Shown: positions 1 through 48,386, numbered from the stretch's first letter. The stretch: DNA of 64,000 nucleotides from Alphaproteobacteria bacterium (GCA_046348645.1 JAXMDU010000004.1:32645-96644), one strand, 5' to 3'. Program-made: numbers and translations. Notes: generated from the sequence alone by a model not told the origin.

Positions 1-693
1 CCGCTGACAAGCGGCTTGCGCAGCATGACCACAGCAGGCCGAGCGCTATGACGGCGCCCTGGATGCGGCGATCAGAGAATTTCGATGCGCAGGGTCGCTC
101 GGTCGCCTTCGCGCAGGCGAACGCCGAACAGCGCCGCACCTTGGCTGAAGCGCCACCCTCAACCAGCGTGAACGGCTGTGGTTCCAGATGACCGAAGGGC
201 TGATAGACGACATCAATGGCTCGCTGGAATCGAGCGATACGCGCCACCTGAACGAATACCTGATGCGCCAGCCGCGGGTCGGTCACCGCATGCCATAGCT
301 GGTGGGATCACGCGTGGCGCGGATTTCGCGCTTGCGGGCTGCCGCCCGTAACCAAGCGGCAGGCGCCTGTCTGGCCGCCCAGCGGAATCCTGAAATAGAA
401 CGGCTTCAAACAGAACCGCCTATCTGAGCTTAAAAGGCTCTAGCATTTGCGTGCCTGGTCAAGATTCACCGGCAGGAATTTGGACAACAGCGGCCAGAGG
501 CGTGCGCTACCACCCGGCGAAGGGGCGCCGTTCGCGGAACCGCAGCTTGTCATGTCGGCGCGTTCCAGGCCTGAAAACACGCTGCTGACAGAAAAGGAGG
601 AAACACCGGCTACGCGCTGCCAAGAAAAAACCGCTTCGCGTCGTGTCAAAAAGCAAGGCGAAACCGAAATCGCTGCGCGTCGTTTCGCGCCGG

Positions 694-1374
694 ATGAGCG
701 CCGAGGAATGGAAGGTTCGATGCGATCTTGCCGCCTGCGCTCGGCTGGCCGATCTGTATGGCATGTCGGACATGGCGGGCACGCATGCCGGCCGGGTGCC
801 CGGACCCGAGGATCATTTCCTGGTCAATCCGTTCGGGTTCCTTTTCGACGAAATCACCGCATCGTCACTGATCAAGGTCGACGCCTGCACGGCAAGGTGG
901 TGGACGGCGATCAGGGCCAGCTCAACCCCGCCGCTGCGTCATTCACAGCGCCATTCCGCATGGCGCGGCTTCGAACAAATCTGCGTGATGCATACCGCGA
1001 ACGCAACAAGCCGATCGCCATGCGAAGGACTGCTGCCCCTGAGCCAAGGAAGGCCCTGCTGATGTGGGACTTCGTGCGCTACCGCGACTATGAAGCGCAG
1101 CTTTGAACCTGGACGAGCGCGAGCGAATCGTGCGCGATGCGGGCGAAGAGGGCGGGCCATCGTCCACCGCAACCATGGCGCGCTTACCCATGGCCGCACC
1201 GTGGGCGAGGCCTTCTGCTGGATGTATCGCCTGGAAGCGGCTCTATCGCTATCAGGTGGGGCGGCCTGGCGGGCGGACGCGAGCTTAGCGGATGTCGGAC
1301 GAGACCTGCAGTACACCGCCGGCCAAGGGCGCAAGCTGCTGGGTCCGGGCGGCGTTGCCGATGCGGCACCTTGA
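694..1374 (+). pseudogene. class II aldolase/adducin-family gene disrupted by several frameshifts
   Basis: Aldolase-II-like segments are split over three + frames (ORF 643-1062: GMSDMAGTHAGRV...NPFGFLFDEITASSLIKVD; ORF 447-1106: GKVVDGDQGQLNP; ORF 1090-1374: IVHRNHGALTHGRTVGEAF). No single intact ORF. Confidence 0.4.
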
Positions 1375-1469
1375 GATGGCCGGGGCTGATCCGCAGAAGC
1401 GGGCCAGGACACAGGCGCAACCTATGCTGATCTGGTTGCTCCGCCGGGATGGGACGATCCTGGCTGTTC

Positions 1470-2617
1470 GCCTGCATCCAGTCCGCCAGGCGACCGAGAA
1501 GAGAGCCGCGCAGGCCTCGACCTGCCCGATCTCGTCGATGTATTCGTTCGGTGACCAGGCCTGGTCGATGCTGCCCGGACCGCGGGCGACGGCAGGAAGT
1601 CCCGCCTCCTGGAACAGCCCAGCCTCGGTGGCGAAAGCGACCGCCCCGCGGCGTTGAGACCAGGTCAGATGGCGGACCAGGGTTTCAGCCGGCATTCGGC
1701 GCCTGGCCACGGGGAGCGGCGGCCTGATCGGCGGTTTCGATCCCGGCATCGGGCGCCACCTGGCGCAGCGCGGGCAGGACCGCCTCGTTCGCGAAACGAT
1801 TGAATCGCGCCAGGATGTCTTCGGCATCGGCGGTCGGCAGGGGCCGAAATTCCCAGTGGAAGCTGCATTGGCGCGGGACGATGTTGACCGCCGTCCCGCC
1901 GCGCACAAGCCCGACATTGACCGTTGTGTGGGGCGGATCAAAGGTCGGATCAAAAGGGCCGCGCTGGCGGAGATCGTCACCAAGCCGGTCCAGGAATGCG
2001 ATCAATTTCGCGGCGGCAAAGACCGCGCTGGCGGCACGACCCGGCGCCGAGGAATGTCCCTCCAGGCCTGTGACCGTGGTCGCAAAGCCGTAAACGCCCT
2101 TGTGGGCATTGGCGATCTTCATCTCGGTCGGCTCGCCGACGATGACCAGCCTGGGTCGCGGCAGTTCGCGCATCAGGCGATGGATCAGGGATGGCACCCC
2201 TGGCAGCCCAGTTCCTCGTCGAACGACAGGGCGAAGTGAAGCGGTGTACCCAGTGGCCGCAGCCAGGAACCGCGGCACCATCGCCAGCGCCGTTCCGATG
2301 AAGCCTTTCATGTCGGCGGTGCCGCATCGCCATGTACCCATGCGCGTTCAGCTTCGCCGAAGGGATCGCCGTCCCAGGGCTGGCCCGCCACCGGCGACAT
2401 CGACCGTATCCCGACGCTGGTACCTTGGCCCATCCAGCGACCAGGCCTGGCGCAGAAGATGGCCTTGTCGCCGGCCGGGTTGCGATCCAGCACCATGCGC
2501 GCGCCGAAGCGCGCCGGTGTTCTGAGCGAATTCCTCGATCAGTGCCGGGTTGGAATTGGCAGACGTCGTATCGAACGCGACCTGATCGCTGATCATCGAT
2601 TGAGGCGTGTCGCTCAC
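1470..2617 (-). pseudogene. M20 peptidase / acetylornithine deacetylase (ArgE)-like gene with multiple frameshifts
   Basis: ArgE/M20-like blocks lie in four different minus frames: 2348-2617 (N-terminus), 2308-2496 (PWDGDPF), 1685-2341 (GTADMKGFIG...NVGLVRGGTAVNIVP), 1285-1983 (GPGSIDQAWSPNEYI). End coordinates approximate. Confidence 0.45.
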
Positions 2618-2705
2618 GCTTTGGCCCTGCCCGCGACTTTGCCCTGCCTACAGCTTTGCCTTGTCTACAACTCTGCCCCGGCCGCGACGACCCGGCTTCC
2701 ACTGA

Positions 2706-3330
2706 TCAGACGTTCTGCAGCGTGCCGCCCGAAAGATTGCCGAGCATCGCCAGCAATTCGCGCCGCGTCGCCTGATCATCGCGGAAGGCGCCCAGCATGC
2801 GGCTGGTCACCATGGTGACGCCCGGCCGATGCACGCCGCGGGTGGTCATGCACTGGTGTGCGGCCTCGATGACGACGCCGACCCCTTTCGGCTGCAGCAC
2901 CTGATCGACCACGTTGGCGATCTGTGCCGTCATCTTTTCCTGGATCTGCAGGCGCTTTGCAAAGATATCGACGACCCGGGCCAGCTTGCTGATGCCGACG
3001 ACACGGCTGCGCGGCAGATAGGCGACATGCGCCTTGCCGATGATCGGGGCGAAGTGATGCTGCAGTGGTCAGCCAGGATGTCACGCAGCAGGACGATCTC
3101 GTCGTAGCCGTCCACTTCCTCGAAGGTTCGCTGCAGGATCTCGATCGGGTCTTCGCGATAGCCGGCAAAATATTCGTCATAGGATCGGGCCTTGATCGGG
3201 CGTTGCGCGCAGGCCCTCGCGGTCCGGATCATCGCCGGCATAGCGGATCGGGGTGCACCGCCTTCAACGCCTCGTCGCGGCTTGGCCGTCCGCCATCGCG
3301 CGGGGCCGAAGCGCCACGCATGATCTTCAT
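2706..3330 (-). pseudogene. folE: GTP cyclohydrolase I (FolE) with at least two frameshifts
   Basis: C-terminal frame 2706-2933 gives [17 protein letters not shown]; hand translation upstream gives [18 protein letters not shown] and [17 protein letters not shown] in that frame, but YDEYFAGYREDPIEILQRTFEEVDGYDEIVLLRDI is in another frame (shift near 3065-3075) and DPDREGL..TP in a third (shift near 3190). 5' end approximate. Confidence 0.5.
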
Positions 3331-3922
3331 GTCCCGCTGGTCGGCGCTCATCGCTCAGATCCTGCCTGCCCAGGTCTGCGCAGCGGCCCCTCAATGCACG
3401 CGCCTTGGCACGTGCGGGCAATCGGAAAACGCCTTGTACGCGGACGGAACTGCTCGCCGCTCGCGCTGTGCATCTCGTGGAATCCCTCCATGATCCCCGA
3501 TGGCGACTTGTGACGGCGTTCCGCTTGAATAGCGGAAGGATTCCCCGGCCGCAGGACCGGCTGCTCGCCCACCACGCCGTCGCCCCGCACTTCCTGGACA
3601 TGCCCCTGGCTGTCGGTGATCCGCCAGTAGCGGCGGCGAAGCTGCTGTCCTCATCGCCTCGTTCCGGATCGCCTTCAATGTGATAGGCCCAGACGAAGTA
3701 GTTTGTCGGCTGGCGCCGACTGGTCGGTCAGGTATTCCGGCTCGACCGATACCCGGATCGCCCGTGTCGTTTCCGAATACGACATGTTCGCGTTCTTGCT
3801 GCCCATCGCCTGCCTCGACTTTCGCTGGGAAAGAAACCAACCTTGGGCGCAAACCGGCACTGCCGCCGCACGTGACCATGATAGTCGGGGAACCGGTGTT
3901 GTCCAGGCTCTCGATCCACGCG

Positions 3923-5116
3923 TCACGGGCCGAGGGCCCCGTCCAGGTCGGCGAGGATGTCGTTCACGTCCTCGAGGCCGATCGACAGCCTGACGGTCCC
4001 ATCCGTGATGCCCATGCCGGCTCGTTCCGCGGGCGTCAGGCGCTGATGGGTCGTGGTGGCGGGATGGGTGGCCAGGCTTTTTGCATCGCCCAGGTTGTTG
4101 GAAATGTCGACCAGCGTCAGGCGATCGAGAAAACGGAACGCCGCGTCCTTGCCGCCCGCGAAGTCAAGCACGACGATGTTCGCGAAGTCCCGCATCTGTG
4201 CCTTGGCAAGCGCGTGTTGGGGGTGGCTGGCAAGACCGGGATAAAGAACCCGCGCCAGCCCCGGTCGCCCATCGAGGAACGTGGCGACGCGGCGCGCATT
4301 CTCGCAATGGCGGGCCATGCGCAATGACAGGGTCTCCAGGCCCTTGAGCAGGACCCAGGCGTTGAACGGGCTCATCGCCGGGCCGGTATGGCGCAGGAAC
4401 GGGGTGAGCTCGTCATCGACATATTTGGCCGTGCCCAGCACCGCGCCGCCCAGCACCCGCCCCTGGCCGTCGATGTGCTTGGTTGCTGAATAGACAACGA
4501 TGTCGGCACCCAGTTCGAGTGGCTTCTGCAGCATGGGCGAGGCGAACACGTTGTCGACCACGACCCGCGCGCCGGCCGCGTGGGCCAGATCGGCAACCGC
4601 CCTGAGATCGATGATCTCGAGAGTCGGATTGGACGGCGTTTCCAGAAACACGGCCTTGGTCGGCCGCGACAGGGCCTGGGCCCAGGCGGAACGGTTGGTG
4701 CCATCGACAAAGACGGTCTCGATCCCCCAGCGCGGAAGGATTTCGCCGATGATGAACTGGCACGACCCGAACAGCGCGCGCGCCGCAACGACCCGGTCGC
4801 CGGCCCGCAGCTGGCAGGCAAGGCTGGTGAATACCGCCGCCATGCCGCTTGCGGTTGCCCGGCAGGCTTCGGCGCCTTCAAGCAGGGCAAGCCGATCCTC
4901 GAACATGCGCACGGTGGGATTGGAGAAGCGCGAATAGACGAAGCCGGGCTCCTGATTCTTGAAACAGGCCTCGGCCTGCTCGGCCGAGTCATAGACGAAC
5001 CCCGACGTCAGGAAGAGCCCTTCGCTGGTCTCGCGGAACTGGCTGCGCACGGTACCGCCGCGAACCAGCTTGGTCTCGGGGTTCCAGGTCTTCGGATCTG
5101 CTGGTGGCTTTGTCAT
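3923..5116 (-). CDS. metZ: O-succinylhomoserine sulfhydrylase (PLP-dependent Cys/Met metabolism family)
   Basis: ORF 3923-5158; strong MetZ-like sequence (NPTVRMFEDRLALLEGAEA...SATKHIDGQGR...SPFNAWVLLKGLETLSLRM). Start chosen at internal ATG (MTKPPADPKTW) preceded by GAGGA. Confidence 0.85.
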   Translation of the reverse strand: MTKPPADPKTWNPETKLVRGGTVRSQFRETSEGLFLTSGFVYDSAEQAEACFKNQEPGFVYSRFSNPTVRMFEDRLALLEGAEACRATASGMAAVFTSLACQLRAGDRVVAARALFGSCQFIIGEILPRWGIETVFVDGTNRSAWAQALSRPTKAVFLETPSNPTLEIIDLRAVADLAHAAGARVVVDNVFASPMLQKPLELGADIVVYSATKHIDGQGRVLGGAVLGTAKYVDDELTPFLRHTGPAMSPFNAWVLLKGLETLSLRMARHCENARRVATFLDGRPGLARVLYPGLASHPQHALAKAQMRDFANIVVLDFAGGKDAAFRFLDRLTLVDISNNLGDAKSLATHPATTTHQRLTPAERAGMGITDGTVRLSIGLEDVNDILADLDGALGP

Positions 5117-5245
5117 CACATCGTCCTCACCGCCGACCGGGCCGCGACGCGCCAACAAAAAACCCGCCCACTCACTGTCGGAGCGGCCGGGCGCTACGAC
5201 CTTTTAGCGGGTTGTTTAACGTGGCCGCAAGCCGGTCGGCTCAAA
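5117..5245 (-). promoter_or_regulatory. metZ leader with candidate SAM riboswitch-like element and hairpin plus U6 attenuator
   Basis: Minus-strand leader contains GCUUGC and CUAAAAGG boxes followed by a bulged GC stem ending in GGGCGGG and UUUUUU, then GAGGA and the start codon. metZ leaders in alphaproteobacteria commonly carry SAM-II; not verified by covariance model. Confidence 0.25.
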
Positions 5246-5301
5246 TCACCACGGTGCCGCTCTCATAGGACGCAGCGCCATGGCCGTCAAGCTGCACCCC
5301 A

Positions 5302-6318
5302 TCACGAACAGCGCCCCCCGCCCAGCACGCAGAACTTCGCGCAATGCGGATGGTTGAGCTTGACCGGTGTCGCCGCTTCGGCAAGCGTCGCTCCCATTTC
5401 GAAGCGCGCGTCATAGGGAAGCAGCGTGCAGGCCACGACGGCGGGCCGCTTGGCGCCGATGCGTTTCACGACCATGCGCGAACTGGCGCACATCATCTCG
5501 TCTGGCGAGCGGTTCAGGATGCCCCAGCAGGCCGTCGTGATCTCGGGGACATCGGCGGTCTGCTCCATCTCGGGAAACAGCACCAGGGACTGCGGATTGG
5601 AGGCCTGGATCGGCCACCCTTCGCGCGCGAACAGGCGGCCAAAACCGGCCCGCAGCGATTCGGCCGGTTCGTTCCAGGGCGGTTCGTTCCAGATGGTCCG
5701 TGCGGCAATGGCGACCCGGAACCCGCTGGCAACAAGCCAGCGTACCCCGTCCAGGGTGCGGGCATAGCTGCCATCGCCGCGTTCATGGTCATGGCGTTCG
5801 GCCTCGTAGTGATCGAGGGACACCCGAATCAGGAGACGGTCCTGGAACCGGTTCTTCAGATCAAGCAGCCTGGCCCGGTGGCGTTCCATCGGCCGCATGG
5901 CATTGGTCAGCACCAAGACGCGAAAGCCGCGGGCCAGGGCAAGATCCAGGATCGGCATGATCTCGGGGTTCATGAAGGGCTCGCCACCGGTCAGGCCGAC
6001 TTCCGCCACCGGCAGCCGGTCGCGCGCAATCTCGTCGAGGTAAGCCTGGACCTCGGCGCACGAAATATAGGTAAGGCGGTCGTTGCGCGGGCTCGATTCG
6101 ATATAGCAGCCGCGACAGGCGATATTGCACAACGTGCCGGTGTTGATCCAAAGCGTTTCCAGGGCGCGAAGCGCAACGCTGGCCCTGGTCTCGCCCGTCA
6201 AGGTCTTGTCAGGGTCCTGGAATTTCAAAGGATTCAAGGTTGGACGAAGATCAACTGAAACGTTCATGAAACCACGCCCGGCAGCCAGCGGCTTGATCCG
6301 ACTCATTTGGTGAAGCAT
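5302..6318 (-). CDS. radical SAM / Cys-rich domain protein (ArsS-like)
   Basis: CNIACRGCYIE (CxxxCxxC) radical SAM motif after LETLWINTGTL; Cys-rich C-terminus (HPHCAKFCVLGGGRC). Start could be the internal ATG at about 6267. Confidence 0.65.
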   Translation of the reverse strand: MLHQMSRIKPLAAGRGFMNVSVDLRPTLNPLKFQDPDKTLTGETRASVALRALETLWINTGTLCNIACRGCYIESSPRNDRLTYISCAEVQAYLDEIARDRLPVAEVGLTGGEPFMNPEIMPILDLALARGFRVLVLTNAMRPMERHRARLLDLKNRFQDRLLIRVSLDHYEAERHDHERGDGSYARTLDGVRWLVASGFRVAIAARTIWNEPPWNEPAESLRAGFGRLFAREGWPIQASNPQSLVLFPEMEQTADVPEITTACWGILNRSPDEMMCASSRMVVKRIGAKRPAVVACTLLPYDARFEMGATLAEAATPVKLNHPHCAKFCVLGGGRCS

Positions 6319-6410: not shown

Positions 6411-6484
6411 GCGGGTGTAGTTCAATGGTAGAACATCAGCTTCCCAAGCTGAGAACGTGGGTTCGATTCCCATCACCCGCTCCA
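6411..6484 (+). tRNA. tRNA-Gly (anticodon CCC)
   Basis: 74 nt cloverleaf GCGGGTGTAGTTCAATGGTAGAACATCAGCTTCCCAAGCTGAGAACGTGGGTTCGATTCCCATCACCCGCTCCA: 7-bp acceptor stem, GTTCGATTC T-loop, anticodon loop UUCCCAA, 3' CCA encoded. Confidence 0.9.
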
Positions 6485-40073: not shown

Positions 40074-40320
40074 CAGGCTGGCCCGTTGGCAGGCGACCTG
40101 AGCGCAAGCATCGCTGTCGGCGGATTTTGCATCGGCCGGGATCGCCGCCCGGCCTCGCTCGCCCCGACAAATATCATTTTATTTCAACAGCTTGATTGAC
40201 AACCGGCGGGTGGCACGACGGGCCGGCAAGGTTCGGTGCGGCATTTTTCCCTGTCGAGAATCTTTACACTTGCCGGCGCCGGACCTCGCCCTATCCCAGC
40301 AAGCCGCTGGAAAACAACAA

Positions 40321-40354
40321 TTAACCATGTTTGGCACGGCTCTTGCATGGTTAA
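40321..40354 (+). promoter_or_regulatory. sigma-54 (-24/-12) promoter TGGCACG-N4-TTGCA embedded in a perfect 9-bp inverted repeat
   Basis: ttaaccatg TT TGGCACG gctc TTGCA tggttaa; consensus spacing exact; about 85 bp upstream of the PEP-CTERM gene start. Confidence 0.6.
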
Positions 40355-40431
40355 CGGCAGGTCGTGAACCGCGCCGGGTGCCAGACCGGCGCATGGGGCC
40401 GAAAACCAGAGCCACTATCCAGGAGGACACA

Positions 40432-41106
40432 ATGAAGAACCTAGCGATCGGACTGAGCGCTGCGCTCGCCCTTGCCATCGGCGGCACATGGCTTGGCGAC
40501 GCAAAGGCTGCGACCATTTCGGTTGAGAGCGGTGGCATCACCCTCAACTCGTTCGACACCACGAAAGCGGGCACCCTGGCAGATCCCTGGCTGATCGACG
40601 AGACGATGACCGCGCATGGCCATCTCAAGTTCTCGGGCGATGACGAACCGGGCGGCTCGAGCCCCCTTGGCGGTGCCAATCCGACGGGTAGCGGTCACGA
40701 CGAGGGTCGCTGGATCTCGAAGACGGTGCTGAACGATACCGGCATCACCTGGACGTCGTTCGAGCTTGAACTGCAGGTCCTTCTTGGCACGCCATCGGGT
40801 CAAGGCGACGGTCTCAGCTTCGCGGATGGCAGCAGCCTGACGACGCTCTTCACGTCGGACAAGTTCTCGTCCTACACGCGGTTCGACGTCGATCGCGACT
40901 ACCTGAACTTCAGCGGCGGCGAGGTCCTGGATGGCCAGTCGGTCACCTTCCTGTTCGTGATCACCGACAACCTGGCGAACGACCCGTTCTTCCTGCTGCA
41001 GACGCCGAACATCCGTGACGTGCCAGTGCCGGAACCGGCGACGCTGGGGCTGGTGGGCCTGGGCCTGGCCGGACTTGCGGCTTTGCGCCGGCGCAAGGCA
41101 TCCTGA
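40432..41106 (+). CDS. PEP-CTERM sorting-domain protein (exosortase substrate)
   Basis: Signal peptide MKNLAIGLSAALALAIGGTWLGDAKA; C-terminal VPVPEPATLGLVGLGLAGLAALRRRKAS (PEP motif, TM helix, basic tail). Confidence 0.85.
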   Translation: MKNLAIGLSAALALAIGGTWLGDAKAATISVESGGITLNSFDTTKAGTLADPWLIDETMTAHGHLKFSGDDEPGGSSPLGGANPTGSGHDEGRWISKTVLNDTGITWTSFELELQVLLGTPSGQGDGLSFADGSSLTTLFTSDKFSSYTRFDVDRDYLNFSGGEVLDGQSVTFLFVITDNLANDPFFLLQTPNIRDVPVPEPATLGLVGLGLAGLAALRRRKAS

Positions 41107-41160: not shown

Positions 41161-41447
41161 CAGCCGGCCTTCTCTGACCCCGGCCTTCTCTGACCAGCGC
41201 AATCGGGCCAGGCTAGGGCAGGACCGGGCGATAATGCCGCGCGCGATCTCCTCGCCATCGGCCACAACCACATCCGCGCCGAAAGATTTGAGATAGGCTT
41301 GCTGCTCGCCCTTCGGGGCGTGCCCCGCGATGCGGATCCCGGTGTTTGCGGCCCGCCGGCCGCGGGGCCATTCAAGACCTGGCCCTGGTCATGCAGCCAG
41401 ACTGATTTGAATTATAATAAATCAATACCGTCGCTGTTGACCACCGC

Positions 41448-41461
41448 GTTGACTTCAGTCA
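41448..41461. promoter_or_regulatory. FNR/FixK-type box TTGAC-N4-GTCAA upstream of ubiT
   Basis: Perfect palindrome ttgacttcagtcaa centred about 34 bp upstream of the predicted ubiT start, next to an AT-rich stretch. Confidence 0.5.
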
Positions 41462-41487
41462 AAGACGACCCCAGCAATTCACCGAGA

Positions 41488-42066
41488 ATGGCCGCGATGT
41501 CGAGTTTCGCCCCCGCCCCGGAAGGGGCACCCTGCCTGCCGCCCCTGGCCGGCCGTCTGCTGGCGCCGTTGCCGCTGGGGCCGATCGCCCTGGTTGCCGG
41601 GCGCCTGTTGGGGCGGATCGCGCGCCACCATCCCGAGATGTTCGACCGCCTGGGCGAAAGCGCGACGAAAACCTTTCTGATCGACGCGACCGACCTGCCA
41701 TTCGTTTTTGTGCTGCGGCCCGATCCACTGCGCCCACGGATCGCCGTCACAAGACGGGGCCGTATCCCCGCATTCGATGCGCGAATCGCGGGCCCGCTGG
41801 CGGCTTTGCTGGGCCTTGTCCAGGGAACCTATGACGGCGATGCCCTGTTCTTTTCGCGCGACCTGATGATCGAAGGCGACGTGGAAGCGGTGCTGGCGCT
41901 GCGCAACGCCATCGACGATGCCGAGCTTGACCTGCTGAGCGAAGCCACCGGCCTGTTAGGGCCGCTTCGCCGGCCGGCCGAAGCCCTGTCGCGCGACGTG
42001 TTGCCGGTCATTCATTGGCTGGCGCGGGCATTGCCGCCCCAGCCCCTGGGTCGCCGCGCCCCATGA
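41488..42066 (+). CDS. ubiT: SCP2-domain ubiquinone biosynthesis accessory factor UbiT
   Basis: LFFSRDLMIEGDVEAVLALRNAIDDAEL resembles E. coli UbiT (YhbT); stop overlaps ubiU start (ATGA); start uncertain (41488 or 41497). Confidence 0.65.
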   Translation: MAAMSSFAPAPEGAPCLPPLAGRLLAPLPLGPIALVAGRLLGRIARHHPEMFDRLGESATKTFLIDATDLPFVFVLRPDPLRPRIAVTRRGRIPAFDARIAGPLAALLGLVQGTYDGDALFFSRDLMIEGDVEAVLALRNAIDDAELDLLSEATGLLGPLRRPAEALSRDVLPVIHWLARALPPQPLGRRAP

Positions 42067-43055
42067 CCCCCCGGCACCTGGAACTGGTCTGCCCGGCTGG
42101 AACGCCGGCAGCCCTGCGCACCGCGGTCGATGCCGGGGCGCACGCCATTTATTGCGGCTTCAATGACGAAACCAACGCCCGCAATTTCCCCGGCCTGAAT
42201 TTTTCGCGCCAGGACATGGCCAGGGGCATTGCCTATGCCCACGGCAAGGGTGCCAAGGTGCTGGTCGCCATCAACACCTTTCCACGCGCCGGCGCCGAGA
42301 CGCTTTGGCACCGGGCCGTCGCCGACGCCGATGCAGCGGGGGCAGACGCGATCATCCTGGCCGATATCGGCCTCTTGGCCTTTGCGCGCGACCACCACCC
42401 GCGGCCACGCCGCCATGTGTCGGTGCAGGCGGCGGCCGCCAATCCCCAGGCCATCGCGTTCTACACCGGCGAATTCGGCGTCAAGCGTGTGGTGTTGCCG
42501 CGTGTCCTGTCGGTTGCCGAGATTGCCGCCATCAACCGCCAGATCGACTGCGAGACCGAGGTCTTCGTCTTCGGCGGTCTGTGCGTCATGGCAGAGGGGC
42601 GTTGTTCCCTGTCGTCCTATGTCACGGGAAAGTCGCCCAACATGAATGGCGTCTGCTCGCCCGCCAGCGACGTCAGCTACCAGACGATCGGAACATCGGT
42701 CGTCTCCCGCCTCGGCGGATTCACCATCGACCAGGCCTCGCGCGACGAGCCGACCCCTTATCCGACCCTGTGCAAGGGATGCTTCAAGTCCGGTGCCTAT
42801 ACCGGCCATGTCTTTGCGGAACCGGCAAGCCTTGACGCGGCCGAACTGATCCCCGCCCTGGCCGAGGCCGGCGTTTCGGCGCTCAAGCTTGAAGGCCGGC
42901 AGCGGAGCCGCGCCTATGTCGGCAATGTCGTAAGCACGTTTCGCCGCGCGGTCGATGCCTATGCGGCGGGAAAGCCCATTCCAGCCGGGCAGTTGCAGGC
43001 GATGAGCGAAGGGCAAAGCACGACGGCCGGGGCCTATGTCAAGACCTGGCGATAG
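42063..43055 (+). CDS. ubiU: U32-family O2-independent ubiquinone hydroxylase subunit UbiU
   Basis: Peptidase U32 features (LELVCPAGTPAALRTAVDAGAHAIYCG, conserved Cys cluster) plus ubiT-ubiU-ubiV order. Confidence 0.7.
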   Translation: MTPRHLELVCPAGTPAALRTAVDAGAHAIYCGFNDETNARNFPGLNFSRQDMARGIAYAHGKGAKVLVAINTFPRAGAETLWHRAVADADAAGADAIILADIGLLAFARDHHPRPRRHVSVQAAAANPQAIAFYTGEFGVKRVVLPRVLSVAEIAAINRQIDCETEVFVFGGLCVMAEGRCSLSSYVTGKSPNMNGVCSPASDVSYQTIGTSVVSRLGGFTIDQASRDEPTPYPTLCKGCFKSGAYTGHVFAEPASLDAAELIPALAEAGVSALKLEGRQRSRAYVGNVVSTFRRAVDAYAAGKPIPAGQLQAMSEGQSTTAGAYVKTWR

Positions 43056-43064
43056 GACGGCGCC

Positions 43065-43997
43065 ATGACCGCCATGCCACCCGGGCGAATGGGTCTCACG
43101 CTGGGGCCGGTGCTGTTCCATTGGAATGGCACGCAGCTTTCCGATTTCTATGTCCGGATCGCGGACGAAGCGCCGGTCGAGCGGGTCTGCATCGGCGAGG
43201 TAGTCTGTTCGAAGCGCTTGCCAAGCGTCATCGACAGCCTGGCCCGGGCCATCGAACGCCTGGAACGGGGCGGCAAGGAGGTCATTCTTTCGACCCTTTC
43301 CCTCGTCACCCTGGAGAACGAAAGAAACCGGGTCACGGATCTGGTTCGCGACGCCGCCATGCCCGTCGAAGTGAACGATATTTCGTCCGTTCCGGCGGTT
43401 CAGGGACGCGCCTTCACGGTCGGCCCGTTCGTCAACATCTACAATGAAAGCACGCTCGGCTATTTTGCGCGCCATGGCGCGACGCGCATCTGCCTGCCGC
43501 CCGAACTGCCGCTGTCGTCCATCGCGGTCCTGGCCCGGACCGGCGCGCCGCTTGGCGTTGCCTGCGAGGTTTTCGGCTTCGGGCGTGTGCCGCTTGCCAT
43601 GTCAGGCCGCTGCTATCACGCCCGCCTGCACGGGACGCGCAAGGATGCCTGCCAGTTCGTGTGCGAAAAGGACGCCGACGGGCGGCCCGTCGATACGCTG
43701 GACGGGCAGCCGTTCCTGGCGGTGAACGGCGTCATGACCATGTCGCAGAGCTGCGTCAACCTGATCGAGGATGTCCGCGACATCGCGGGCGCCGGGATCG
43801 ATTCGATCCGCCTGTCGCCCCAGACCTGCGACATGGTCCGGGTCGCGAAGATTTTCCGCGCCGCCATCGATGGCGAGCGGGACCCGGCCGCCGCGCGCCA
43901 GGACCTGGCCGCGCTCATTCCCTTCGCGCCCTTTTCGAACGGGTTCCTGCACGGGACGCGCGGCGTCGCCTATGTCGGTCCCGCAGAGGCCGGCTGA
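43065..43997 (+). CDS. ubiV: U32-family O2-independent ubiquinone hydroxylase subunit UbiV
   Basis: U32 family (YhbV-like), cysteines CEVFGFGRVPLAMSGRCYHARLHGTRKDACQFVC; last 20 codons lie in the left direct repeat. Confidence 0.7.
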   Translation: MTAMPPGRMGLTLGPVLFHWNGTQLSDFYVRIADEAPVERVCIGEVVCSKRLPSVIDSLARAIERLERGGKEVILSTLSLVTLENERNRVTDLVRDAAMPVEVNDISSVPAVQGRAFTVGPFVNIYNESTLGYFARHGATRICLPPELPLSSIAVLARTGAPLGVACEVFGFGRVPLAMSGRCYHARLHGTRKDACQFVCEKDADGRPVDTLDGQPFLAVNGVMTMSQSCVNLIEDVRDIAGAGIDSIRLSPQTCDMVRVAKIFRAAIDGERDPAAARQDLAALIPFAPFSNGFLHGTRGVAYVGPAEAG

Positions 43998-44217
43998 AAC
44001 GCCCTATTCCGCCGCCTTCTGGCGGAACTTCGAGAGCGAGCCCGAATGCATGATCTTGCCGTTGAGATTACGGCCGATCATGCCTTCCACCATCTGCGCG
44101 CAACCGATCAGCTTGTCGAGATCGATGCCGGTCTCGATGCCAAGCTCGGCGCACAGGAACACCATGTCCTCGGTGCAGATGTTGCCGGCCGCGCCCTTGT
44201 GGCCGGCGAAGGGACAG
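43937..44217. repeat. left copy of about 281-bp direct repeat (ubiV 3' end, spacer, 3' end of HMG-CoA lyase-like gene)
   Basis: Near-identical to 48104-48386 with a few 1-2 nt indels/substitutions; flanks the low-GC insertion. Confidence 0.85.
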
Positions 44218-47200
44218 CCGCCGAGCTCACCCTCAGCATCCCATCAACCCAGGAGCACAATAACCCCAGACTCTACTTGTGAATACGATCAAAGCCAGGA
44301 GCACTTCAGCGTCACAGAATGAGAATTCTGTGGAAGCACACTTTTTACGCTTCTTCGCTCCGTTTTTTCGTTGTTGCAACCCACCGCCGTGACGCGCCTC
44401 CTGCCTTGCCTCGCTTTTTCTTCCCTCCCAGATTCACAGCCCCCTTACACTTCGGGTAGTCAGCGCATCCATAGAATGGGCCGAAACGTCCGTTGCGAAG
44501 CTTAGTAGGCCCACCGCATTCAGGGCATGGAGGCCCATCCTTCTGCAGTGACGGATCGGACGGGGAGCTTTTTCGTCCAGACGTGCCCCGCGCACTGTCG
44601 TGCCAGCCGCAGCCTTCCTCATCCTCGCATGTAAAGTACGGGCCGTAGCGGCCCTCCGCATAATATGTTCGCGAGTTGCAGTTCGGGCATCGCGGATTTT
44701 CTGCCTCGGCTACCGTCGAAGCTGCCTCCGCTCGCGCGATCCCAATCCTCTTCGAGACGAATGCAGCAACCTGTTCTGCGAACCCTTCGCTTTCGGCCCT
44801 GGTCATGAACTCATCTGTTCGAGACGTATGTGACAAGGGATTGAGAGAGCCCGACCAGATGACGCGATTATCAATCAAGACGATCTTCTCATGAATGTCG
44901 CGCCGGCAATCGACGACCACCCCAATTCCTTCCAAAGCATCCAAGGCTTGTTTCCCAAGCTCCTCGGGAATTGAGCCGTTGAACCGGGGTGGCCTCGTTA
45001 CACACCGAATTGCGACTCCGTCGCCGATTTTTGTTCTGAACAGGTCTCCATAGGACGCTACACGCTCCGGCGTTATGAAGCCGGAATACATGACAATCGA
45101 CCGCTCCGCCCGGTTCATATCCACCAGACAAGCGTCGGCGAATGTTTTGGAGTGAAACAGCCCGAGCTTCTCTGCATCCAGATCAAGCTCAACAATGCCC
45201 ATGAGGTCTTTCAGATCGCGTTCAATCGGACGCAACGCCATCACTTCGGAAGCGTCGATCACACGACCATGTTCCTGCGCAGTGTGCAGGATACCTCTAA
45301 GCAACGCGGTGCTGGGCAGATGCATATCGAGATAGGTCAGATTGGCCAGCACCAAGAGGTGCTCTTGAGCCCGGCTGACGGCGACGTTCATGAGTCGGGC
45401 ACCGACGTGCTTAGGAGGGATACCCTGCACAAACAACCCAATCCTCCGACTTGGCCCAATGCTTTCAGGGATATCGAGGATCATCATGCGCTTTTCGTCG
45501 CCTTGATAACGATGGACTGTACCGGTCGCGGCGAGTTGGGCCACTGGCTCCATATCCCCAATAAGCTTCTGCAACAGTTTGGCTTGTGCTGCATAGGGCG
45601 TGCATACACCGAGCGCGCTTGAGCTATCCAGAAATCCGTTTGATGCTAAATAGCCGACAAGATTTCGGATGAGAAGCGCATTCAGAAGGTTGAATCGGGA
45701 TTTAAAGATGTTTCGGCTTTCGAACGGCCATAGTCTGGACGTATCGATGATGGTAAGCGCCCCGTCATATGGCGCAGGCGGTCGTGGGCCGTTGGGCCGA
45801 TGGCGTTCTTTGGCCGTTGTAAGCCTTCCTTGATACATGTCTGTCGCGATGAGGCCGCATATCTCGTCCGTCATGCGATACTGAGTATCGAGCAGCGCAT
45901 ATCTGGGATCTTCGCTCTTTCCGTCGATGCCCGCCGACTCAAAGACATCCTGCCCAATGAGATCGTGGATTGCCTGTTGGCGGCTCGGCAAGATCGGCGG
46001 GAGCTGTCGGAAATCACCAGAAACGATCACCCGTTCCGTTGACAGGCCCGCAGCGAAATAAAGCGCGGGCAGAAGCACCATCGACGCTTCGTCAATCACG
46101 ACAACATCAAACCGGCCTATGTCACGTGCCTGGAGGTACGACTTTGCAACAGTTGTCCCGATCACGCGCGCCTCACGCATGATCGACGCTTCCATTTCCG
46201 CTAACCGCCGCGCAATTTCCTGAAGTTCGGCCACAAGCGGCTGACGTTCACCATCAATCGCCTGTCTGTCCCTTTCAAGCTGTTGCCGGTCTTGTACAGA
46301 GAGCTGGGATGCCAAGGATTCAGCCGAAGATCGCACTTCGTTACGTTTGTTCTCTAATGTCTTGGCTTCGGCCGTCCCGTTTCGAACAATTGCTTCCTGA
46401 CGCGCTATTTCCGATTCGGCACGTCGATAGTCGCTTATGATTATCTCATCGGAACGAAGAAAAACGCGACGCAACACGCCTGCGCTTTTCCGCTGTTGCA
46501 GCTCAGCTTTGCAGTCCTGAATTTGTTGCTGCGCCTTTTCATAGGATGCGGCAGCAGTCTTTATGGCGTTAAGGCATGTGTTCAGTTGCTGATTGAGGGA
46601 TGTCAGCTTGCTTTCGGTCCTATCAAGCCGCGCAAAGAGCTGAAGCTTTTCGTTTATAGATGTCGCTTTGGCGTCGAACAGCGCCACTTGTTCTTCCAGC
46701 TCGTGTTGTCGCTCCCTGAGTCCCTTCGACAACCGTTCGATAATACCGTCTGTCGTCACATAGGATGCGTACTCGTTCTTAAGCTCCGGAAGGACAATGT
46801 TGCCGATGCGAACAACTTTGCCTTCTTCAAACGCGGCATGTTTGAGATGCTCCAGATGACGGCAAAGCTTATAGATAAGCTGATCAACAGCCTGGTTCGT
46901 GTTGGAGCAGACGAGGATACGCTTTCCAGCGTCAAATGCGGCTTGAATGCCGACGGACAGTGTTTGCGTTTTTCCCGTCCCCGGAGGTCCCCACAGGTAT
47001 GAAATGCTGTGCTCCAGCATCAAGTGCAGTGCAGCGTTCTGGCTATCATTCAGATCGTGAGGCGGCACGCCGATTGGCGACACTTCGGAGTTGTGGATTT
47101 CCTTGGATACGACGCTATCCGCCACTGATGCAGATAGATTCAGTTCGCCCTTGCCCACCTGATCAAGGCGGTCTTTCAGTGCTTCGATCAGAGCCGTGTT

Positions 47201-48103
47201 GTCGATGAGAAGTATGCAACGTCGGATTGATGGTCCCAGGTTGCCATCCAGCGAAATAAGTATGGTCCCTTCCGATATTGATACGATTTGCCCTCTGCTA
47301 CGTCGGCCATCGACTTCAATTTCTATTCGCGCTTCCTCGAAAATCTCCGCTTCTTCAGAGAACGGGAATACATAGATAGGTTGGCCCGCCTGCGTGTCTA
47401 CGACTTTGCCGCGCTCCAGTTCATAACGGCGACTGCCGCTACCTTCTCTTCGCATTTCGCTTATCAGGGCGTCGAGCGCGAGAACATAGCGCTGTATGTT
47501 TGTGGAATCCTGCGGCAGATCGATAACCAGATCGGTGTCCAGAGCCGGTTGGTAGGCATCAGGCTTTCCCCTAACCCCTGGAGCAGCGATCCCGGTGAAA
47601 TGTTGCGGTATCCTCCTGTCATCAGGTTGCTCGTCCGGGATAGACGGAGTTGATACTTCAGCAGGCCTTTGGCTCGCCGAAGCGAATGATGCCGCTGGGT
47701 CTGAAGATGTACGGGAAGGTACGGGCCGGTTCTCCGGGCGCACGCCAACAGGCTGCCCCTCAAACAAGTGGCCGGTTGGCGCAGGGCCTTCCCTTGATTG
47801 GTTCTCTATTGCTGTGAGGCGTTCTTCAACTCGGCTACGAAGCCTCTTTGCCCGGTCGGTCTTCCGGTGTTCAAGCTCATCGAGAAGGCTCCGCATCGTG
47901 GCCCGCTCTTCGCCTTTTTCGGCGAAAAGCTTCTCAAGCTGGACTATTCCATGCTGGATGAAGGTCCGCTTCATTCTTGGTCGCCTGCCTCAAGCGCCGT
48001 TCCTTTGCTCCCAGGAAAACGTATGCCACTTCGGATGGTAAGAATTTCTCAAGACCATAGTGTTGCCCCCTAGAATAGTGCCGACGGCGAGGTAACGCTT
48101 CTT
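44218..48103. mobile_element. putative horizontally acquired insertion (about 3.9 kb, lower GC), no integrase/transposase, single cargo gene
   Basis: GC about 47-52% in sampled lines versus about 60-75% in flanks; bounded by the 281/283-bp direct repeats; interrupts the 3' region of the HMG-CoA lyase-like gene. Confidence 0.55.
44345..47974 (-). CDS. 1209-aa fusion: Upf1-like SF1 helicase + PLD (HKD) nuclease domain + two topoisomerase-type C4 zinc ribbons
   Basis: Helicase motifs WGPPGTGKTQT, VCSNTNQAVDQL, VVVIDEASM, SGDFRQLPP, QYRM, VHRYQGDEKRMMILD, NVAVSRAQEHL, with about 250-aa coiled-coil insert between Walker A and B; HKD motif HEKIVLIDNRVIWSGSLN; ribbons CPNC...C..C and CPEC...C..C; K/R-rich tail. 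Confidence 0.75.
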   Translation of the reverse strand: MKRTFIQHGIVQLEKLFAEKGEERATMRSLLDELEHRKTDRAKRLRSRVEERLTAIENQSREGPAPTGHLFEGQPVGVRPENRPVPSRTSSDPAASFASASQRPAEVSTPSIPDEQPDDRRIPQHFTGIAAPGVRGKPDAYQPALDTDLVIDLPQDSTNIQRYVLALDALISEMRREGSGSRRYELERGKVVDTQAGQPIYVFPFSEEAEIFEEARIEIEVDGRRSRGQIVSISEGTILISLDGNLGPSIRRCILLIDNTALIEALKDRLDQVGKGELNLSASVADSVVSKEIHNSEVSPIGVPPHDLNDSQNAALHLMLEHSISYLWGPPGTGKTQTLSVGIQAAFDAGKRILVCSNTNQAVDQLIYKLCRHLEHLKHAAFEEGKVVRIGNIVLPELKNEYASYVTTDGIIERLSKGLRERQHELEEQVALFDAKATSINEKLQLFARLDRTESKLTSLNQQLNTCLNAIKTAAASYEKAQQQIQDCKAELQQRKSAGVLRRVFLRSDEIIISDYRRAESEIARQEAIVRNGTAEAKTLENKRNEVRSSAESLASQLSVQDRQQLERDRQAIDGERQPLVAELQEIARRLAEMEASIMREARVIGTTVAKSYLQARDIGRFDVVVIDEASMVLLPALYFAAGLSTERVIVSGDFRQLPPILPSRQQAIHDLIGQDVFESAGIDGKSEDPRYALLDTQYRMTDEICGLIATDMYQGRLTTAKERHRPNGPRPPAPYDGALTIIDTSRLWPFESRNIFKSRFNLLNALLIRNLVGYLASNGFLDSSSALGVCTPYAAQAKLLQKLIGDMEPVAQLAATGTVHRYQGDEKRMMILDIPESIGPSRRIGLFVQGIPPKHVGARLMNVAVSRAQEHLLVLANLTYLDMHLPSTALLRGILHTAQEHGRVIDASEVMALRPIERDLKDLMGIVELDLDAEKLGLFHSKTFADACLVDMNRAERSIVMYSGFITPERVASYGDLFRTKIGDGVAIRCVTRPPRFNGSIPEELGKQALDALEGIGVVVDCRRDIHEKIVLIDNRVIWSGSLNPLSHTSRTDEFMTRAESEGFAEQVAAFVSKRIGIARAEAASTVAEAENPRCPNCNSRTYYAEGRYGPYFTCEDEEGCGWHDSARGTSGRKSSPSDPSLQKDGPPCPECGGPTKLRNGRFGPFYGCADYPKCKGAVNLGGKKKRGKAGGASRRWVATTKKRSEEA

Positions 48104-48386
48104 GAACGGGTTCCTGCACGGACGCATGGCGTCGCCTATGTCGGTCCCGCAGAGGCCGGCTGAAATCGCCCTATTCCGCCGCCTTCTGGCGGAACTTCGA
48201 GAGCGAGCTCCGAATGCATGATCTTGCCGTTGAGATTACGGCCGATCATGCCTTCCACCATCTGCGCGCAACCGATCAGCTTGTCGAGATCGATGCCGGT
48301 CTCGATGCCAAGCTCGGCGCACAGGAACACCATGTCCTCGGTGCAGATGTTGCCGGCCGCGCCCTTGTGGCCGGCGAAGGGACAGC
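48104..48386. repeat. right copy of about 283-bp direct repeat
   Basis: Duplicate of 43937-44217; contains a degenerate copy of the ubiV 3' end and the 3' end of the HMG-CoA lyase-like gene. Confidence 0.85.

Follow-up and report, generated by a model that had tools for sequence, protein, structure and literature searches.

Frameshifts in five adjacent genes of an alphaproteobacterial MAG contig are probably uncorrected sequencing errors

Five frameshifted genes at the left end of the window

The DNA analysed here, called the window, is a stretch of 64,000 nt from a contig of an Alphaproteobacteria bacterium metagenome-assembled genome (MAG; GCA_046348645.1, JAXMDU010000004.1:32645-96644), with a GC content of ~65%. 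Frameshift-aware alignment to intact proteins of the same strain, whose source is described below, placed 35 frameshifts over five consecutive genes in window positions 1-3702. The leftmost gene, encoding a 197-aa hypothetical protein (hyp197), starts to the left of the window, and its C-terminal 91 codons occupy 1-269 on the + strand. In the alignment to the same-strain protein (P0334, 87.5% identity) this fragment has three apparent frameshifts, at 34, 74 and 150, and the gene is unbroken in contigs L161-L165. The intergenic spacer that follows (270-609, assigned to no strand) exceeds that of the relative L082 in length and contains 13 discrepancy events between positions 269 and 608. The extra 314 nt at 268-581 were considered as an insertion relative to L082, a possibility rejected because the same-strain contigs also have the long spacer, of ~360 nt.

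The next gene, at 610-1432 (+), belongs to the class II aldolase/adducin family and would encode 277 aa when intact. It has 13 apparent frameshifts relative to its same-strain partner (P0328), its Pfam matches to Aldolase_II (PF00596) fall on two fragments, 643-1062 and 1090-1374, and it is intact in six same-strain contigs. On the opposite strand, at 1459-2617 (-), lies a gene for an ArgE-like M20 peptidase, labelled ‘acetylornithine deacetylase’ by the sources, with 387 aa when intact and 10 apparent frameshifts relative to its partner, P0336. The central 154 codons of this gene are clean, an ORF at 1685-2341 carries a Pfam match to M20_dimer (PF07687), and the gene is intact in contigs L159 and L161.

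The folE gene, for GTP cyclohydrolase I, spans 2706-3351 (-; 217 aa when intact). Its three apparent frameshifts all lie within the N-terminal 100 codons, and the C-terminal 118 codons are clean and in a single frame; Pfam matches to GTP_cyclohydroI (PF01227) are split between fragments 2706-2933 and 2930-3601. The frame-corrected product is clearly a FolE, with identities of 97% to the same-strain composite and 92.5% to FolE of L082, and the top database match of the reconstructed protein is 95% identical. Same-strain coverage of folE comes in parts, with the N-terminal 99-143 codons intact in L081 and L155-L158 and the last 33 codons in L161. The fifth gene, apaG (DUF525, PF04379), lies at 3391-3806 (-) and has six apparent frameshifts, its first 34 codons being clean. 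Its assignment follows from the PF04379 match of the 138-aa same-strain product (P0316), to which the window copy aligns over residues 1-138; the intact 138-aa DUF525 gene is present in five Logan contigs. After correction of frames, with substitutions left uncorrected, the window copies of the five genes are 87.5-97% identical to the same-strain proteins. Judged by the codon-position GC pattern, the only long coding-like ORF in positions 1-3925 is one of 120 aa. A repeat search of 1-6000 gave only short chance-like matches and no mobile element that could account for the zone.

In the spacer between folE and apaG, at 3358-3385, all five of the same-strain short-read contigs that were compared have a tandem duplication of 15 nt that is nearly perfect, CAGATCCTGCCTGCC / CAGATCCTGCCTGCA. 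In the window this duplication is garbled and lacks 7 nt.

To the right of the zone, metZ (O-succinylhomoserine sulfhydrylase, MFO1188290.1; 3923-5116, -) is intact with no frameshifts and served as an internal control. Directly upstream of metZ is a SAM-II (SAM_alpha, RF00521) riboswitch at 5184-5262 (-, 73 bits). The initial annotation had reported the aldolase, ArgE-like and folE genes as each multiply frameshifted, and the Pfam fragments and the 13, 10 and 3 frameshifts bear this out. Its observation that genes from 3.9 kb onward are mostly intact also holds, with long coding-like ORFs tiling the window to ~40 kb and most of 49-64 kb, and with metZ unbroken. Those three genes are indeed among the ones affected, but the extent of 694-3330 given for the damage was too small, since five genes are affected and the zone covers at least 22-3702; nor is 3330-3920 without an assignable gene, because apaG lies there.

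Comparison with same-strain contigs and with relatives

Same-strain reference contigs were drawn from seven datasets, Logan SRR26348421, SRR22840551, -552, -553, -554 and -555, and ENA ERZ773282. They were found through an exact MetZ protein match, which identified contig L081 in SRR26348421, and then through members of protein clusters and the contigs carrying them; the same-strain ArgE and aldolase sat inside 90% clusters and were found by listing the cluster members. Homologue searches, which returned cluster representatives, gave no same-strain FolE, full-length or partial. No same-strain DNA was found in JGI metagenomes with an ArgE search (best match 57% identical), and a literature search on the run accessions found nothing. 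The reference contigs are only 1-5 kb long, the ENA contig having a coverage of 2.45, and jointly they cover 1-2808 and 2931-5253 of the window. In these contigs the genes are called intact, in the orders hsp33-Dph-hyp197-aldolase (277 aa)-ArgE (387 aa) and apaG (138 aa)-metZ, with folE represented by intact partial calls at contig ends. Contig L081 is 100% identical to the window over 3716-5253, differs from it in clusters over 3058-3715, and has an intact apaG.

The reference contigs agree with each other except at four SNPs and at the left end of L160 (window positions below 78), which is unrelated. The SNPs, at window positions 119, 3058, 3609 and 3652 only, are genuine population SNPs, and their frequency of ~0.1% gives a baseline for real variation in the population. 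L160 itself (ERZ773282 NODE_7973, coverage 2.45) carries the same-strain aldolase and, of ArgE, only the last 149 codons. The neighbourhood there is different, with an RNB exoribonuclease gene on the upstream side and DUF3159 and MerR/ILVD-like genes on the downstream side, so that L160 represents either a low-coverage chimera or a strain with a rearrangement.

When the window was compared with the same-strain consensus, 366 alignment columns differed, in ~100 events, and every one of these events lies within 22-3702. The events fall into three patches. The first, at 22-1732, has 69 events and 12.6% of columns differing over ~1,710 nt compared; the second, at 2196-2590 (395 nt), has 16 events and 18.5% of columns differing; and the third, at 3058-3702 (645 nt), which ends inside apaG, has 15 events and 11.5% of columns differing. 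No event is present in the 461 nt at 1735-2195, in the 345 nt covered at 2591-3057 (where 2809-2930 is outside contig coverage, but in frame), or in the 1,551 nt of the right flank at 3703-5253. At the zone’s mean event rate, the probabilities of clean runs of this kind are 2.6e-6 for 1735-2195, and 6.5e-5 and 1.5e-19 for the other two. The edges of the patches, at 1732/1735, 2195/2196, 2590/2591, 3057/3058 and 3702/3703, all fall within argE, folE or apaG and are unrelated to gene structure. By frame disruption alone, with 35 frameshifts in five genes, these would be pseudogenes; the neutral divergence expected of pseudogenes is not found, however, as 11.5-18.5% of columns differ in the patches and none in 2,357 adjacent or interleaved nt. 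Nor are the lesions reproducible, with 0 of the ~100 events occurring in any of the seven datasets. Taken by itself, run SRR26348421 is 100% identical to the window in three places, 3703-5253, 1735-2195 and, in contig L166, 3,900 nt at 44197-48096; because of this identity elsewhere, the run must hold the same strain, along with its intact genes.

Relatives were used to assign the differences to branches. Among GTDB genomes scanned with MetZ, the nearest are only 55-69% identical at the protein level. A JGI contig, L082, has ~88% nucleotide identity to the window, and L151 and L152 are more distant. In the comparison with relatives that the initial annotation had proposed, all three carry every gene intact in the same order: metZ-apaG-folE-argE-like and then, on the opposite strand, the aldolase gene, the 197-aa gene and a Dph-like gene. 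This conserved alphaproteobacterial neighbourhood, metZ-apaG-folE-argE-like facing the aldolase gene, is common in order and orientation to L082, L151, L152, the same-strain contigs and the window, and with the errors taken out the window shows no departure from it. Aligned to L082, the window has 58 indels from 25 to 3702 and none inside metZ. With L082 as outgroup in 3076-3715, L082 sides with L081 at 20 of 20 polarizable substitutions and at 14 gap columns, and never with the window at a substitution.

A relative-rate test, in which window-private and L082-private substitutions were counted using outgroups, agrees with the patch map. The two classes are near balance in metZ (21:27), in the 5' end of apaG plus the spacer (12:12) and in the clean part of folE (6:6). 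An excess on the window’s side is found in every patch tested: 62:20 in the aldolase patch (789-1440), 22:6 and 50:4 in the two argE patches (1441-1732 and 2197-2600), 19:9 in the folE patch (3061-3351), and 29:8 in the apaG patch (3396-3715). The clean part of argE also shows a mild window-private excess (19:7), and these changes are real lineage differences, because the window is identical to the same-strain contigs there. The differences in the patches are thus private to the window, at 20:0 in 3076-3715 and with an excess in the patches generally. Since these extra changes are confined to this one record, both an import from a diverged lineage and a mixture with an L082-like population are argued to be excluded as their source.

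Origin of the frameshifts

The types of change in the patches are those expected of long-read errors: the differences are rich in indels, biased to deletions, marked by homopolymer contraction, and show an excess of transitions. Relative to the same-strain consensus, the window has 90 bases deleted and 29 inserted. Length changes account for 54 of the 100 events, and in 48 of these the change is not a multiple of three. As to homopolymers at the shift points, which the initial annotation had wanted analysed, almost every single-base deletion falls in a homopolymer or a doubled base (GG, AA, GGGG, CCCCC). Isolated substitutions are transitions in 22 of 25 cases, A>G being the commonest. Many of the events are short scrambles of a complex kind, as where AACAACCC is read as GGCCTT. 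This spectrum matches the one published for nanopore reads, in which errors are more frequent at high GC (~8%) and consist mainly of deletions at homopolymers and short repeats, and in which transitions outnumber transversions (PMC8486125). Gene fragmentation by long-read errors is a recognised problem (PMC12007338, PMC8011154), and tools such as Kastor (PMC12007338) and Homopolish (PMC8011154) exist to counter spurious fragmentation. Systematic nanopore error at GANTC/GATC methylation motifs was considered as the main cause and rejected, because the events, inspected by eye, are not tied to these motifs and the rest of the window is clean.

From the sequence comparisons we conclude, with a probability of roughly 0.93, that the broken genes are patches of uncorrected sequencing error in the MAG contig and that the organism’s five genes are intact. 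The frameshifts would be base-calling or consensus errors, and 22-1732, 2196-2590 and 3058-3702 would stand at roughly raw long-read accuracy, the sequence between them and to their right being accurate. The nanopore-like profile suggests unpolished long-read sequence, and each patch may have been supplied by a single raw long read or very few, with polishing absent. The contig is probably the product of long-read or hybrid assembly, its organism being of low abundance, and the accurate segments would be short-read contigs or well-polished long-read consensus. The likely origin of the patches would then be a hybrid assembly in which long reads joined small short-read contigs across gaps, or a depth too low for polishing; the clean islands of ~460 nt would fit small short-read contigs joined by raw long-read sequence.

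The case resembles gene fragmentation by long-read or hybrid indels in that the frameshifts are private to one assembly, deletion-biased, concentrated in contractions of homopolymers and short repeats, and accompanied by substitutions dominated by transitions, and in that the genes can be restored with the help of short-read data or homologues. It differs from the usual homopolymer errors, which are sparse and spread over the whole assembly, in having three dense patches at about the raw-read level in an otherwise error-free 64-kb window, and dense patches in a clean window suggest a local failure of polishing or gap filling with raw reads. Some points stand against sequencing error. The column discrepancy of 11-18%, which is inflated by misalignment within complex events, exceeds the ~8% of recent nanopore reads and could point to older chemistry or to another cause. 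It is also odd that the short reads of SRR26348421 left the patches unpolished, if that run contributed to the assembly.

The initial annotation had offered two accounts, a local zone of relaxed selection or low-quality sequence at this end of the window, though its title spoke of decayed genes. Clusters of true pseudogenes are found in genome reduction, for example in Mycobacterium leprae and recent symbionts, and the zone is like them in that adjacent housekeeping-type genes each have multiple frameshifts. That the strain lost selection on a five-gene block, which is now decaying, would account for five genes being repeatedly disrupted in one contiguous block, and a deletion bias is also typical of bacterial pseudogenes. 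The marks of true decay are absent here, namely diverged neutral sites in the flanks, lesions common to conspecific samples, and more substitutions than indels; the indel:substitution ratio is near 1:1, and the patch boundaries cut through genes. Decay also cannot yield 11-18% divergence beside 1,551, 461 and 345 nt with none, synonymous sites included. At the hundreds of synonymous and intergenic sites in the flanking and interleaved segments there is not one difference from the sister sequences, so the real divergence time must be near zero, and against this the patches differ by >10%. Loss of selection does not raise the mutation rate, and for that reason relaxed selection is ruled out as the cause of such a contrast. 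The seven datasets, including a run otherwise 100% identical to the window, contain only the intact allele. This intact orthologous region in the same strain, and the same run’s identity to the rest of the window, refute the ‘decayed genes’ of the initial annotation, and we regard genuine pseudogenes as very unlikely. Its alternative of low-quality sequence is strongly supported by the intact same-strain short-read contigs and by the patchy, private differences.

The changes might instead be real DNA of another kind, either imported by recombination from a divergent lineage whose genes had already decayed or produced by localized hypermutation. The sharply bounded mosaic of divergent and identical segments does resemble recombination tracts, but the changes from an import should be split between the two branches, and in 3076-3715 all 20 of the polarizable substitutions are on the window’s branch and none on L081’s; the relative-rate excess is moreover confined to the patches. 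As for hypermutation, we know of no bacterial process giving >10% mixed indels and substitutions over kilobases. Real DNA of this kind therefore seems extremely improbable. In its most specific form, the MAG lineage would carry three kilobase-scale, indel-rich hypermutation tracts that destroy five housekeeping genes, folE among them, with the intervening sequence identical to that of the sister population; we consider this very improbable, and, if real, such tracts would be a bacterial kataegis-like localized mutagenesis. That the lesions are real by any route in the MAG’s cell lineage, through localized hypermutation or true decay, is as a whole improbable. The garbling might also stem from a chimeric consensus, built from mixed reads of two co-occurring related populations, instead of from low depth. 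Relatives at ~88-90% nucleotide identity do occur in similar samples (L082), and polishing with mixed reads can garble the consensus of a metagenome. At substitution sites, however, no window-private state is ever that of L082, the closest known relative, and as the relatives’ frames are all intact, mixing alone would not create 48 frame-shifting events. We give such a mixture hardly any weight, and, if true, it would still be an artefact and would leave the verdict unchanged.

The database record and the rest of the window

The ORF at 1685-2341 (-) has a 218-aa product identical to NCBI MFO1188287.1, which is annotated as ‘MAG: peptidase dimerization domain-containing protein [Alphaproteobacteria bacterium]’ and lies on a contig of 253,165 nt. 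It follows that the window is part of a MAG and that the frameshifts were present when the sequence was deposited, with none arising afterwards. To judge from the same-strain sequence, MFO1188287.1 is an artefactual fragment of the 387-aa enzyme; its N-terminus and its last ~11 residues are out-of-frame translation resulting from the error events at 2326-2342 and 1709-1732. The public MAG record thus holds at least 3.7 kb of uncorrected sequence, giving rise to spurious pseudogenes and to one or more spurious protein entries, and folate auxotrophy, FolE2 dependence or genome reduction inferred from it would mislead. The initial annotation had reasoned that a folE pseudogene would imply a second folE or FolE2; since folE is intact in the organism, the premise is gone and neither is needed. 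The feature is not biological, and its value is that of a data-quality warning. A cheap, read-free test is available for such cases: the suspect region is compared with exact-match same-strain short-read contigs, and one asks if the differences are private, patchy and indel-rich.

Several features of the remaining window are recorded here in their own right. A tRNA-Gly(CCC) gene lies at 6411-6484 (+), and the product of a gene at 40192-41106 (+), 304 aa long, has a PEP-CTERM sorting motif at its C-terminus. By Pfam, 41299-43997 contains a gene for an SCP2-domain protein and then two Peptidase_U32 genes, an arrangement that we take to resemble UbiT/UbiU/UbiV of O2-independent ubiquinone synthesis. 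A low-GC block of ~3.9 kb at 44219-48119 (54-56% GC, against 65% elsewhere) is flanked by a direct repeat of ~265 nt (43954-44218 and 48120-48386; 96-100% identical), a duplication of the 3' ends of the U32-peptidase and HMGL-like genes on either side. Its one protein, MFO1188323.1, is 1209 aa long, with SF1-helicase AAA_11/AAA_12 and Zn_ribbon_Top1 domains and a weak PLD-nuclease-like match (PLDc_2) that is below Pfam’s cut-off. The block looks like an inserted island, probably mobile and possibly defence-related, and it is present with 100% identity in Logan run SRR26348421.
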